Shown here piece by piece: positions 50,474 to 63,993 of a stretch of DNA of 64,000 bases (within the stretch, counting starts at the first letter, position 1; each line of letters starts with the position of its first letter). A program made the position numbers and the translations under genes. Location: NCBI RefSeq assembly GCF_013122565.1, contig NZ_CP053258.1, one strand, 5' to 3'. This DNA comes from Escherichia coli (GTDB lineage Bacteria; Pseudomonadota; Gammaproteobacteria; Enterobacterales; Enterobacteriaceae). The notes below the pieces were generated by a model that saw only the letters and a list, made by a program, of their open reading frames with translations, ran no database searches and was not told the origin of the DNA.

Positions 50474-50488
50474 TTCCTGTTTTATTCA

Positions 50489-50513
50489 ATGAGGGTTGCC
50501 CGGCAACCCTCAT
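50489..50513. terminator. Palindromic hairpin between convergent yeeX and pduV (putative shared terminator)
   Basis: atgagggttgcc-c-ggcaaccctcat, a 12-bp perfect inverted repeat, with T-rich sequence on the plus side and ttgaataaaac on the minus side. Confidence 0.5.
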
Positions 50514-50573
50514 TGCTCATTGATTCTTTTCTGTGTATCACAGTCATCATTCCCATCTGATAACCTATCGAAA

Positions 50574-51017
50574 TTAGCGACAGACATCTTCTGTATGCAG
50601 CAAGGAAAAAAGTTCTGTAACTCCATTGTTATTAACCGCACTGGTTACTAACACGTTCTGCGCTCCAGCTTCCCGTAACCAACATTTCACCAAAGATATT
50701 TGTTCCATGCTGGCTAAATCTGCTTTGGTTACTACTCCAATGACCGGGCGATTCATTGACGAGGTAAAGCCTGGCGAAAAAGGTGACCACGGTGCGTCCG
50801 CATTAAGCACCAGCGCGATAATGTCTGCTTCGCAGGCACTGACCAACAGTGCACTGTAGAGGCTGCGGTTTTCGAGGTATTCGCCTGGTGTATCAATGGT
50901 GGTCGGGGACCAGACGATTGCCTGCGTTTTCTGATAATGAATATTTTCGCCACGCAGACATTGCGTGAGTGACGTTTTTCCGCACTGGCTGGGGCCGATG
51001 AGCATCATACGTTGCAT
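50574..51017 (-). CDS. pduV: PduV, EutP/PduV-family small GTPase associated with the microcompartment
   Basis: 147 aa; P-loop [15 protein letters not shown]; last gene of the pdu operon in this window. Confidence 0.85.
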
Positions 51018-51021
51018 AATG

Positions 51022-51372
51022 TCAGGTCCGCGTAATGGGGCAGGCGGTAAAGCGCATCATTTCACCCAGCGTACGGGTAACCTGGCTAAGTGCATATTCA
51101 ATTGCAGAAACATCACCAGTCAGCACTACGGCACCGGTAAAACGATCAAGAAAACCGATCTCTACAGCGCCTGATTTTGTGGCGATATCGCATGCGATGA
51201 TAGATGCTTCGCTGGGGGTAATCGTCAGAATGCCAATAGCAGAAACGGTGTCTGGTAAACCCAATTTCTTAAACAGATCCTTCCCTGGATTGGCGATGAC
51301 ATGTGCCAGCGTGACCTGCTTACCAGGGACATATTCCTGAATCATCCGTTCAGTTGTGTGCTGAGTTGTCAT
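51022..51372 (-). CDS. pduU: PduU, microcompartment shell protein (circularly permuted BMC domain)
   Basis: 116 aa from the internal ATG overlapping the pduT stop (TAATG); …[32 protein letters not shown]… matches recalled PduU/EutS-type sequence. Confidence 0.85.
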
Positions 51373-51926
51373 TATCCCTCCACCATCTGACGCCACATGG
51401 CTTCATGTGGGCGGGCAATCACCGACCGATAGACCAACAAACCTTTTTCCCCCGCACGCTCGCTGGCGACAGAGACCGCGTTATTAACATCTGAAATATC
51501 GCCAGCAACCACCATGTAGCATTTACCGCCAATGCCAAAAGCCATATGCACGCGAACGAGAATGACATTCGCAGCTTTGACTGCACAATCGGCAGCGTCA
51601 ATGCAGGCGGCGACACTCCAGGTTTCGACTACGCCGACAGCCCGGTGCTGTTCAGCATGGTTAAGTCCGCTGATTGCAGAAAGGATGCTGGGATGAATAT
51701 TCGGCAGGACAAGACTGTCGACCAGCATTTCGCCAGCAAGGGAAGCGCCGCTGTTGATGGCCTGTTGCACCGCGCCCACATCGCCACCGAGCATCAGTAG
51801 AAATTTTCCGGGGCATAGCGTTTTGCTGACCAGTAACTCAACGTTGGCGCTTTTCAGCATGGCATCGCCGGTTTCCATCCCTTTCGCGATACTGCTAAGT
51901 TCTAAAATACCTACCGCTTTCGACAT
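51372..51926 (-). CDS. pduT: PduT, tandem-BMC-domain shell protein (Fe-S binding)
   Basis: 184 aa starting [32 protein letters not shown]; two BMC repeats. Confidence 0.9.
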
Positions 51927-61108: not shown

Positions 61109-61117
61109 AGTTCGTCC

Positions 61118-61636
61118 TTAATCGTCGCCTTTCAGTTTTTTGCGCTCGACATAAAGTTCCGCAGCTTCACGGACAAATGCAGCACAAATTTGGGCCTGAT
61201 AACGCCGTTCAAGATCGTCAGCAATGGCAATAAGTTCTTGCTTAGTTGAACGATAAGGGCGTAACGCATTGTAGATTTCGAGGATGCGATCATCCGGTAC
61301 TGAGGTAAGCTCAGCGGCGCGTTCAAAATTCATCGCCAGACGATCGCGACCAGCATCTCTGGCAATCGCGGCCTGAATACGCAATGTTTCAGGGGTAATG
61401 CGCATATCCTGGGCGGTGACGTTATCGCTTAGCACATTTTCCAGAGTGAAATCGTCGAGCGTTTTATTGGTTGCTGTTTTAACCCATTCCGGATGTTTAT
61501 TTGCCAGCGGATAATCCGTCACTTTGGCGCTCTGTATTGACGCGCTGGGGACCGCAGAAACAGGAGCTGCATCCTGTAAACTGTTCATGCGGTTCAACAC
61601 GTCCCTGACCATCGACTCAATTGCATCGGTATTCAT
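61118..61636 (-). CDS. pduE: PduE, propanediol dehydratase small (gamma) subunit
   Basis: 172 aa starting MNTDAIESMVRDVLNRM. Confidence 0.92.
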   Translation of the reverse strand: MNTDAIESMVRDVLNRMNSLQDAAPVSAVPSASIQSAKVTDYPLANKHPEWVKTATNKTLDDFTLENVLSDNVTAQDMRITPETLRIQAAIARDAGRDRLAMNFERAAELTSVPDDRILEIYNALRPYRSTKQELIAIADDLERRYQAQICAAFVREAAELYVERKKLKGDD

Positions 61637-61650
61637 GAAGGTTTCCTTTG

Positions 61651-62319
61651 TTAAAACGTCACGCGCAGTTCTTGCGGTTTTTTGCCAGTGACCACGTACT
61701 TCGTCTCTTTAATATGCAAAATGGCAGATTTGGCTTGGTATTTCGGCCGCGCCATTTGATCGTTGAGGGTCGGCACTGGTTGTGGAGACTCACGCTTCGC
61801 ATAACGCGCGGCGTTTTTGCCAATCTGACGATAAGTATCCAGCGTCAACAAAGGCGCTTGTGGGAAAAGTTCCAGGTTAGACAAGGGAGGAAGCCCCTGC
61901 TGGTGGATAACCGTTGTGCCTTTCGACTGAATACCGATAGCAATACCTGAACCACTAAGACGATCGCCTTCGACTGCTACGAATGCGACATCGGACGATT
62001 TAAAGCAGCGAATCACACGGGCTTTAATACCTTCTTCTTCGATACCGGCAATTACTTCGCGCAAGATGTTTTTATGCGGAATACCGATGATATTGACGGT
62101 TTGCGCCAGGCCGAACGCCGGTCCTACAGCAATAATGACTTCATCTTGCTGAGTGCCTTGTTGGGCTTCGCCAATTTCGGTCAGAAAATTTCCGGTATCT
62201 GGCGCGAAAGAGGCAGTTGCAGAGACAGGTGCGCGAAATGAAACGGACTTGTCGCTGGTTTGCATTTCTGCCAGCACGTCTTCGATAATCTGACGCAGTA
62301 ATTTTTCGTTAATTTCCAT
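61651..62319 (-). CDS. pduD: PduD, propanediol dehydratase medium (beta) subunit
   Basis: 222 aa starting [16 protein letters not shown]. Confidence 0.92.
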
Positions 62320-62328
62320 TTCTCACCC

Positions 62329-63993
62329 TTAGTCAATTTCGTTGGGATCAAGTGCACCGGGAATATTTTTGATCTCTTCCCAGCGTTCCCCTTGCAGGCG
62401 GTAACCTGTAGCCGGTCCGGCGTAATCATTGACGTCATTGACCGCAGAGAGCACTTGTCCGTCATCGACGATGATGGCTGAGGTATGGAGATAATCGCCG
62501 GTCAGTTTTGCTTTTTGCATGTTGAGCATGTCCTGGGCGACATCGGTAAAACCGCCTTGCGCCAGGGCTTTCACCACTTCCAGGCTGTTACGGTTTTTAT
62601 TGATAATTTCCTGGGCGAACTTAATGTCTTCTACGATGTTGCGCTCTGGCATATCTTTCGAACCGTGGGCATAGGTCGCCGCTTCGACTTCTTCATCGGT
62701 AATAGGCGGTAGCCCCATACCGGCAAAGACAGCCTGTAAAGCGCGAGCGGCTTTATTGCGGATAGCGATAACATCTTCTTCGCGTACTGGTCGCAGCCCG
62801 CCATCAACCTTCAGGTCACGCTGAATGACGTTGTAATCATCGAAGTCTTCAGCATCTTCGTTTGAACCAGCAAACATGTTGTCGTAGTTCGGCACAGCGG
62901 AAAAACCGGAAGAGATAAAGTCGGTACCAGGCAGAAACTGCATCAGGAAACGTGCGGTACGGCGCATATCCGAGTGGGTAAAGGTCTGGTCATTACTGGA
63001 GGCGCATTCCAGATCCAGCGATGAGCAAATTAAGTTTTCCGCTAATACTGCGCGGATGCCTGATGGCACAGCTGATGGAACACCGATGCAGCTTACCGAA
63101 CCATTCTGCAGGCCCTGAACGCCTGCGGCTTTGGTGATGTAAATGCAACGAGCCTCGAGATAAAGCATTGATTTGCCTTCCGCGTAACCCATCTGTACTT
63201 CAGAGCCGGAGCCGGAAGTAAAGCGCATTTTTAAGCCGCGAGACGCATAGGATGACGCGAGAAATCCTTTTGACCACGGGGTGTCATCGCCATCGGTGAA
63301 AACAGGTTCTGTACCATAGACAGAAATTGTTTCGGCGTAACAGGTGTGGCCTAACATACCGAGTTTCAGTTCGGTGGCTTCTTCCAGTGAACACTGGGTC
63401 AAGACGCCCGGACGTCCCACCTGTGAGCCGACCAGCAGGGCGATGGCGTTGAACGGGGCATAGCGAGCAACGGCAACGGTGGTTTCCTGTTCATCAAACC
63501 CGCGCCATGCGCCTTCAGCTGCGTCGGCGGCAATTTGTACCGGGTTATCTTTGACGTTGGTGACGTGAGCCTGTTGTGATGGTGTTCGACGGGCGCGCAT
63601 TTTCTGCATCGCCATCATCATCTCTACCACGTTCATCTGCGAAACAACTTCGACGATTTTTGCAGGCGTCATTGCTGTGGTAAGGGGAACGATATCGCTA
63701 CGTTTGACATTTGGATCGCACAACATATTGGCAAGTTTTACCGAATCCATCGCGATGACTTCTTCTGCGCGCGCGAGATTGATGCCGTAGCGGGCGATAA
63801 AGTGGTCGATCAGGTCAAACTGGCTGGCGGGTTTTCCATCCAGTTCGGTAACGACGCTGTTAACAATTTTGATTGACGGTTTAGGATCGTTCGGGCTTTC
63901 CATCGCAATGAAGCCTTCTTCAATCCACTCTTTAACGAAACCGTCCTGGTTGACCGGGCGTTTTGCCAGTGCTTCAAATCTTTTCGATCTCAT
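62329..63993 (-). CDS. pduC: PduC, coenzyme-B12-dependent propanediol dehydratase large (alpha) subunit
   Basis: 554 aa starting MRSKRFEALAKRPVNQDGFVKEWIEEGFIAMESPNDPKPSIKIVN; near-identical over long stretches to recalled Salmonella PduC; start codon 7 nt from the window end, so pduB/pduA are not visible. Confidence 0.95.
   Translation of the reverse strand: MRSKRFEALAKRPVNQDGFVKEWIEEGFIAMESPNDPKPSIKIVNSVVTELDGKPASQFDLIDHFIARYGINLARAEEVIAMDSVKLANMLCDPNVKRSDIVPLTTAMTPAKIVEVVSQMNVVEMMMAMQKMRARRTPSQQAHVTNVKDNPVQIAADAAEGAWRGFDEQETTVAVARYAPFNAIALLVGSQVGRPGVLTQCSLEEATELKLGMLGHTCYAETISVYGTEPVFTDGDDTPWSKGFLASSYASRGLKMRFTSGSGSEVQMGYAEGKSMLYLEARCIYITKAAGVQGLQNGSVSCIGVPSAVPSGIRAVLAENLICSSLDLECASSNDQTFTHSDMRRTARFLMQFLPGTDFISSGFSAVPNYDNMFAGSNEDAEDFDDYNVIQRDLKVDGGLRPVREEDVIAIRNKAARALQAVFAGMGLPPITDEEVEAATYAHGSKDMPERNIVEDIKFAQEIINKNRNSLEVVKALAQGGFTDVAQDMLNMQKAKLTGDYLHTSAIIVDDGQVLSAVNDVNDYAGPATGYRLQGERWEEIKNIPGALDPNEID

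Follow-up and report, generated by a model that had tools for sequence, protein, structure and literature searches.

A probably ancestral pdu locus beside yeeX

The stretch of DNA analysed here comprises 64,000 nucleotides of the Escherichia coli contig NZ_CP053258.1 (assembly GCF_013122565.1; hereafter the window) and closes with an operon of propanediol-utilisation (pdu) genes lying beside the core gene yeeX. We hold it to be very probable that this operon is the intact ancestral pdu locus of Escherichia, which came down vertically from the common ancestor of Escherichia and Citrobacter and has been deleted in most E. coli lineages, and that it encodes a 1,2-propanediol microcompartment. That pdu is ancestral and repeatedly lost, rather than inserted, is argued from four lines of evidence: a conserved junction, divergence in step with the flanking genes, a native G+C content at third codon positions (GC3), and remnants of pduV in genomes that lack the operon. 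The original prediction had regarded the junction as a recurrent integration point and the operon as an accessory insertion. This claim is not supported, on the same grounds, namely the junction shared with sister species and Citrobacter, the co-divergence of pdu with its flanks, a GC3 like that of the flanks, and pduV scars with at least three breakpoints.

Species-representative genomes were scanned with PduV, which returned 29 loci; the PduV peptide patterns reach only close relatives, and neither Salmonella nor Klebsiella was among the loci returned. In E. albertii, E. whittamii and the divergent lineage of strain E69, pduV adjoins yeeX-yeeA-sbmC-dacD across a spacer of ~100–115 nt, and these neighbours recur beside pduV in over 15 genomes of Citrobacter, Pseudocitrobacter and relatives, with 2.2 kb between pduV and yeeX. 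Because the junction is conserved in sister Escherichia, Citrobacter and Pseudocitrobacter, the yeeX-side position of pdu is taken to be ancestral. In C. braakii the 2.2-kb segment holds a 404-amino-acid (aa) acetate/propionate-family kinase (PduW, 837 bits) and a 288-aa GHMP-type kinase (PduX). These are the products of the terminal genes of the Salmonella type operon, which are present in Citrobacter and absent from E. coli CI5, E69, E. whittamii and E. albertii, as well as from the window, where only a 100-nt spacer separates pduV from yeeX. Both genes are accessory to the pathway and not defining for the compartment, and their loss by all appearances marks the Escherichia lineage.

Pairwise identities, concatenated over genes with the window as reference, were compared between pdu and a flank partition consisting of yeeX-yeeA-sbmC-dacD, and a neighbour-joining tree was built for each partition. 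The values for pdu and flank, respectively, were 97.6% and 98.3% for E. coli CI5, 90.2% and 91.8% for E69, 90.5% and 88.5% for E. whittamii, 88.9% and 86.9% for E. albertii, and 72–73% and 75–77% for Citrobacter. Both trees place the window beside CI5 in a monophyletic Escherichia, apart from Citrobacter; they disagree in the branching among E69, E. whittamii and E. albertii. The GC3 of the pdu genes (0.45–0.57) is close to that of the flanks (0.48–0.63), their GC (0.48–0.57) lies inside the flank range, and the GC profile has no step at the junction. Neither an atypical composition nor a phylogeny of the pdu block incongruent with the flanks was found by GC, GC3 and trees. Judged from these comparisons, the composition of pdu is native and its divergence keeps step with that of the flanking core genes.

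Several database records met along the way deserve comment. Strain E69 (CP089930.1) and a second such record, filed as E. coli, share only ~90–92% identity with the window and with CI5 over pdu and its flanks, a level comparable to that of E. whittamii, and records of this type probably belong to a cryptic Escherichia lineage. In the metagenome-assembled genome (MAG) bin 'Citrobacter sp. HRGM_Genome_0066', one contig has a pdu block 96–99% identical to the window and hence E. coli-like, and a genuine Citrobacter pdu locus is found in this bin too. A pduV fragment with 85% aa identity lies on a 2.5-kb MAG contig assigned to Segatella copri. Both cases look like contamination during binning. A Planctomycetota MAG contig with a 60% PduV-like match was likewise counted among three questionable MAG contigs.

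Remnants of pduV in pdu-negative genomes

In K-12, the interval reads cobU, CP4-44 (a 12.7-kb cryptic prophage), yoeD/yoeF and tmaR, the last being the current name of yeeX. Past the same 100-nt spacer from tmaR, K-12 yoeF (locus record 20550–20932, with yoeD), annotated as an uncharacterised protein, corresponds to the last 183 nt of pduV. Homology to the window, spanning spacer and pduV 3′ end, amounts to ~94% over 283 nt and ends abruptly at ~50756; past this breakpoint lies an IS66-type transposase fragment overlapping the annotated yoeD pseudogene, followed by CP4-44, and the Prokaryotic Genome Annotation Pipeline (PGAP) labels the equivalent stretch elsewhere as transposase or IS66-family fragment. 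An identical 283-nt remnant is present in about three quarters of genomes, as estimated by sampling the ranked list of 5417 matching genomes at even intervals. APEC O18 has the K-12 breakpoint followed by a larger CP4-44-type island. Other junctions were also seen: Sx181-0-1 keeps 399 nt, its pduV remnant being fused directly to a shortened cbiG-fragment ORF (open reading frame) upstream of cobU with no island, and Br_178 keeps 92 nt adjoining IS1. A scar-free empty site was not found among the pdu-negative genomes examined, all of which retained 92–399 nt of spacer and pduV.

From these remnants, the pdu-negative states are best read as losses of a locus that was already in place, through deletions with no fewer than three independent junctions. 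Only one of the three deletion junctions carries a CP4-44-type island. Since the K-12 island abuts truncated pduV and not yeeX, it would have replaced pdu rather than filled an empty hotspot. The original prediction, that CP4-44 occupies the same junction in K-12, is thus right in placing CP4-44 between cobU and tmaR and wrong about the point of contact, which is inside the pduV remnant yoeF and not at yeeX. Because most genomes share one breakpoint, the majority of pdu-negative genomes look like the product of one old event that spread and not of recurrent integration; this commonest deletion would have been coupled to the IS66 fragment and CP4-44-type island, leaving the pduV scar known in K-12 as yoeF. 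Among the papers covered by a literature search, none treats yoeF as a pduV remnant. We do not claim this identity as new, because PGAP already labels such remnants 'EutP/PduV family'.

Insertion, or retention and loss

The full pdu block occurs at the same site in 636–637 of 5426 complete E. coli genomes (~12%), at 97.2–98.3% identity, and the locus is therefore variable within the species, as had been anticipated; the window allele is at least ~1.7% diverged from every complete RefSeq E. coli genome. In ST144 (sequence type 144) pdu is fixed, and in several other sequence types it is intermittent (PMC9836092); it has also been reported in ~50% of adherent-invasive E. coli (AIEC) vs 20% of non-AIEC strains. 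In ST372, the pattern was read as multiple gains and losses, and the identity of its pdu to that of Salmonella LT2 was put at 77.5% (PMC9997745).

This low frequency of ~12%, the CP4-44-type island in the interval of K-12 and APEC O18, and the repeated gain proposed in the ST372 population study (PMC9997745) could be taken to mean that pdu is an accessory island, inserted horizontally beside yeeX at a hotspot with differing cargo (pdu here, CP4-44 in K-12). We consider this very improbable. No integrase, tRNA gene or direct repeat adjoins the yeeX-side boundary (the far boundary lies outside the window), the position is kept in sister species and Citrobacter, and divergence follows the flanks with native GC3. 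Moreover, the island of K-12 abuts truncated pduV and hence replaced pdu, one identical breakpoint in about three quarters of genomes points to one event, and another pdu-negative type is a clean deletion without insert.

Some points weigh against unbroken ancestry of the locus. The distribution of pdu within E. coli is patchy, and multiple acquisitions were inferred in ST372 (PMC9997745); in some carriers, therefore, homologous recombination between the conserved flanks may have brought the operon back, in place of unbroken descent. The comparison with Salmonella relies on the literature (77.5% to LT2) and on the LT2 gene order. Taking these together with the evidence above, we favour retention and loss as the dominant process at species and genus level, with room for recombinational regain in particular lineages. 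A more sweeping version, in which pdu descended vertically at yeeX-cobUST since before the Citrobacter split and its patchiness goes back almost entirely to one ancient IS66/CP4-44-linked replacement plus a few independent deletions, appears unlikely to hold in full. If it did, the narratives of 'loss and reacquisition' and 'multiple acquisitions' for the Escherichia cob/pdu region would have to be revised, and yoeF would become a dated marker of the single replacement.

Gene content of the operon and its predicted pathway

A complete pduC–V block had been predicted after yeeX, and it is there: 17 intact, contiguous genes occupy positions 50574–63993 of the minus strand in the order pduV-U-T-S-Q-P-O-N-M-L-K-J-H-G-E-D-C (Table 1; ORF coordinates), full length by coordinates and by NCBIfam profiles, which back the gene identities mostly above curated cut-offs and over the full profile length. 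The five predicted start/stop overlaps are also exact, at 1 nt for pduT/pduU (the pduU ATG at 51372 meets the pduT stop), 4 nt each for pduQ/pduS, pduO/pduP and pduL/pduM, and 11 nt for pduG/pduH. Pseudogenisation inside the operon was considered and ruled out, every ORF being full length relative to profiles and orthologues, without truncation or frameshift. In Escherichia pduV is the last operon gene, and pduS lies between pduQ and pduT, likewise in CI5 and Citrobacter.

Table 1. Features of the pdu block and of its junction with yeeX (window coordinates)
Feature	Position	Strand	Product or description	Support
yeeX / tmaR	50144-50473	+	DUF496, phosphotransferase system (PTS) regulator TmaR, core gene	NCBIfam NF040881 TmaR 188 bits, cut-off 170; 100% nt identity to K-12 tmaR
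yeeX-pduV spacer	50474..50573	.	100 nt between the two stop codons	sequence read directly; conserved in K-12
pduV	50574-51017	-	EutP/PduV small GTPase-like microcompartment protein	TIGR02528 187 bits, cut-off 138
pduU	51022-51372	-	circularly permuted bacterial microcompartment (BMC) shell protein, EutS-like	NF012012 134.7 bits, cut-off 123; PGAP names CI5 orthologue pduU
pduT	51372-51926	-	tandem-BMC-domain shell protein	TIGR02526 full-length match 1-180; pduT in CI5 per PGAP
pduS	51929-53272	-	RnfC-like 4Fe-4S flavoprotein, cobalamin reductase	TIGR01945 RnfC subfamily 253 bits
pduQ	53269-54381	-	iron-type 1-propanol dehydrogenase	Fe-ADH family matches; PGAP in CI5: 1-propanol dehydrogenase PduQ
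pduP	54392-55777	-	CoA-acylating propionaldehyde dehydrogenase	NF011927 713 bits, match 1-461/465; PGAP name pduP
pduO	55774-56781	-	two-domain ATP:cob(I)alamin adenosyltransferase	TIGR00636 PduO_Nterm 160.8 bits, cut-off 108
pduN	56793-57068	-	EutN/CcmL pentameric vertex protein	CcmL and EutN family matches; 99-100% aa identity to CI5, E69 orthologues
pduM	57072-57563	-	microcompartment structural protein	NF011957 247 bits, cut-off 179
pduL	57560-58192	-	phosphate propanoyltransferase	NF011652 255.8 bits, cut-off 209
pduK	58195-58617	-	BMC-domain shell protein, C-terminal extension	BMC-domain matches residues 1-86; orthologue in CI5
pduJ	58641-58916	-	major hexameric BMC shell protein	EutM and CsoS1 family matches; 100% aa identity to E. 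coli, Citrobacter PduJ
pduH	58936-59286	-	diol dehydratase reactivase small subunit	weak relation to dehydratase medium subunit, expected for PduH; PGAP in CI5: 'reactivase beta/small subunit'
pduG	59276-61108	-	diol dehydratase reactivase large subunit	TIGR04491 960 bits
pduE	61118-61636	-	diol dehydratase small subunit	NF011971 equivalog 356.7 bits, cut-off 282
pduD	61651-62319	-	diol dehydratase medium subunit	NF011616 391.6 bits, cut-off 248
pduC	62329-63993	-	B12-dependent diol dehydratase large subunit	NF011979 1069.8 bits, cut-off 788, match 1-554/555

The B12-dependent diol dehydratase is complete, with PduC, PduD and PduE all full length and above curated cut-offs. The shell set in the window consists of the BMC-domain proteins PduJ, PduK, PduT and PduU together with the vertex protein PduN and PduM; the core aldehyde-processing enzymes (PduP, PduL, PduQ) and the cofactor-maintenance genes of the Pdu locus (PduGH reactivase, PduO, PduS) are all encoded. 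For pduK, the longest ORF uses a GTG start at 58617 and gives a 140-aa product beginning MKQSLGLLEV, and the PGAP start of CI5 pduK lies 27 nt further upstream, overlapping pduJ (window 58195–58644); this is an annotation discrepancy only.

At the other end of the block, the pduC start codon begins at coordinate 63993 and the window ends seven bases later, so that the apparent end at pduC is the window edge and not biology; pduB, pduA, pduF and pocR would be expected past base 64000, because CI5 has them there. Beyond pduC, the CI5 locus continues with pduB and pduA, then with pduF and pocR, which are divergent, and a cobalamin riboswitch; next come an ORF of 145 aa, cobU-cobS-cobT-ldtA and three genes for tRNA-Asn. 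The product of this ORF, a 'hypothetical protein' (locus record 37025–37462) encoded between riboswitch and cobU, matches CbiG over its N-terminal third only, the first ~125 profile positions, and is by this match a relic of a deleted cbi operon. As checked in CI5, then, cobUST is kept beyond pdu, and of cbi only the cbiG fragment.

The operon and yeeX are convergent. The 100-nt spacer between them, which K-12 has kept although it lacks pdu, holds a perfect inverted repeat of 13 bp (50487–50499 / 50503–50515) that possibly serves as the yeeX terminator; a scan of 49900–51100 for consensus terminators and promoters did not call it.

The pathway scheme is taken from established work on Salmonella and Citrobacter; the genes for its steps are seen here, and we infer their operation in this strain. 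In this scheme PduJ, PduK, PduT, PduU, PduN and PduM, with PduA and PduB, would form a polyhedral compartment enclosing PduCDE, which would convert 1,2-propanediol to propionaldehyde in a B12-dependent reaction. PduP would then turn propionaldehyde into propionyl-CoA, PduL would yield propionyl-phosphate from it, and PduQ would recycle NAD+ through formation of 1-propanol. PduGH, PduO and PduS would see to enzyme reactivation and regeneration of adenosyl-B12, and PduV is predicted to be a small GTPase-like protein associated with the compartment. Since the propionate kinase PduW is absent (as is the threonine kinase PduX), and given the known redundancy of these kinases, the last, ATP-yielding step would fall to AckA or TdcD. 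E. coli with pdu and the late cob genes and without cbi therefore requires corrinoid import; cbi being absent in close relatives, the imported corrinoid would be completed by cobUST. In other pdu-positive E. coli the operon is functional: AIEC strain CUMT8 fails to grow on 1,2-propanediol once pduC is deleted (PMC9220930), and bile salts induce the pdu operon of LF82, which in the published listing runs only as far as pduV (PMC6379400).

Host backbone and haplotype of the window

A 16-kb query from sbmC to pduC aligned end to end with E. coli chromosomes at 98.3% identity, and the yeeZ-to-yeeX flank reached 98.8–98.9%, in agreement with the prediction of E. coli-type flanks (98–99% nt identity). 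The idea that the window comes from Salmonella or Citrobacter, where pdu is universally present, finds some support in the gene order, which resembles that of the LT2 locus. We give it practically no credence: flanks and pdu are 97–100% identical to E. coli and only 72–77% to Citrobacter, pduW and pduX are absent as in Escherichia only, and the O-antigen cluster matches the E. coli O3 family. The prediction that the flanks are E. coli and not Salmonella or Citrobacter is thus correct, but its corollary, that E. coli flanks make the locus accessory, does not stand, the locus being very probably ancestral all the same. As the best identity to complete E. coli genomes is only 98.3–98.9%, Shigella and a cryptic Escherichia clade were considered as sources as well; a cryptic-clade source was set aside at identities of ~91% (E69), ~89–90% (E. 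whittamii) and ~87–89% (E. albertii), leaving the window within E. coli sensu lato.

Upstream of pdu, the window holds the colanic-acid cluster, an O3-family O-antigen cluster, gnd-ugd-wzzB and the his operon. Positions 1–17000 cover the colanic-acid (wca/cps) genes from wcaC to wcaM, by synteny with strain Ceylon31, and nothing unusual was seen there. The O-antigen cluster (~17000–31000; wzx, wzy and glycosyltransferases) has a low GC of 28–34%, lies between galF and gnd-ugd-wzzB, and has ~98% identity to its counterpart in no more than 16 complete E. coli genomes. The best-matching strain, Ceylon31, has an annotated transposase of the ISAs1 family (H-repeat) close to galF at the equivalent place.

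Two gene pairs are missing from the window, the toxin-antitoxin pair yefM-yoeB between hisL and yeeZ (41239–41822) and tsuA-tsuB (yeeE-yeeD) between plaP and sbcB (45248–45320). Both pairs are present in K-12, CI5 and Ceylon31, and neither is found in E. albertii, E. whittamii or the E69 lineage; APEC O18 and Br_178 lack tsuAB only. Because E. albertii, E. whittamii and E69 are also without both pairs, the window appears to keep the ancestral arrangement at these two sites.

These observations bear on the possibility that the locus, ancestral in the genus, was re-acquired in this strain from another pdu-positive E. coli, through homologous recombination that took in both flanks, his-yeeX and cobUST. 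The region adjoins the O-antigen and his recombination hotspot, the window pdu is equally distant (97.2–98.3%) from all 637 carriers with flanks ~98–99% identical to their best matches, and the ST372 data suggest that gain and loss are tied to O-antigen switches. No feature of the window, however, separates re-acquisition from simple retention, and the absence of yefM-yoeB and of tsuAB, which looks ancestral and is common to E. albertii and E. whittamii as well, fits retention on an old haplotype. Re-acquisition in this strain is conceivable but rather unlikely.

Comparison with known pdu systems

1,2-Propanediol is produced by gut microbiota fermenting fucose and rhamnose, and the pdu microcompartment lets enteric bacteria use it; published work links pdu to Crohn's disease-associated E. 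coli and to the dog-associated ST372. The operon described here is an already known system at its ancestral place, well described in E. coli (AIEC, ST372, ST144). Being intact, it predicts a metabolic capability dependent on imported B12 or cobinamide. What the present analysis adds is modest and evolutionary, opening no new question: the locus is very probably ancestral, yoeF is a scar of pduV, and a CP4-44-type island replaced pdu.

The pdu-positive E. coli (AIEC LF82, CUMT8, ST372, ST144 and CI5) have the same genes, order, overlaps and chromosomal position as the window, with 97.2–98.3% identity over the block, which likewise ends at pduV. Unlike CI5 and K-12, the window represents a haplotype without yefM-yoeB and tsuAB.

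The LT2 operon was reportedly given by Bobik et al. in 1999 as pduABCDEGHJKLMNOPQSTUVWX, and its neighbourhood, between the cob operon and yeeX, is presumably the same as here. In gene order from C to V, enzymology and shell set, the operon of Salmonella enterica LT2 agrees with that of the window. Its identity to E. coli pdu has been put at ~77.5% (PMC9997745). In Salmonella, pduV is followed by pduW and pduX, and a full cbi-cob operon allows B12 to be made de novo; Escherichia lacks pduW and pduX, and CI5 has only a cbiG fragment and cobUST. The pdu loci of Citrobacter (C. braakii, the C. freundii group and C. amalonaticus) occupy the orthologous position by yeeX-yeeA-sbmC-dacD, with protein identities of 53–100% in step with those of the flanking genes; they differ by the 2.2-kb pduW-pduX segment between pduV and yeeX. 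K-12, finally, shares with the window an identical tmaR and spacer, together with yoeF as the homologue of the pduV 3′ end, but the stretch from pduU through pocR is deleted there, and an IS66 transposase fragment and CP4-44 stand in its place.

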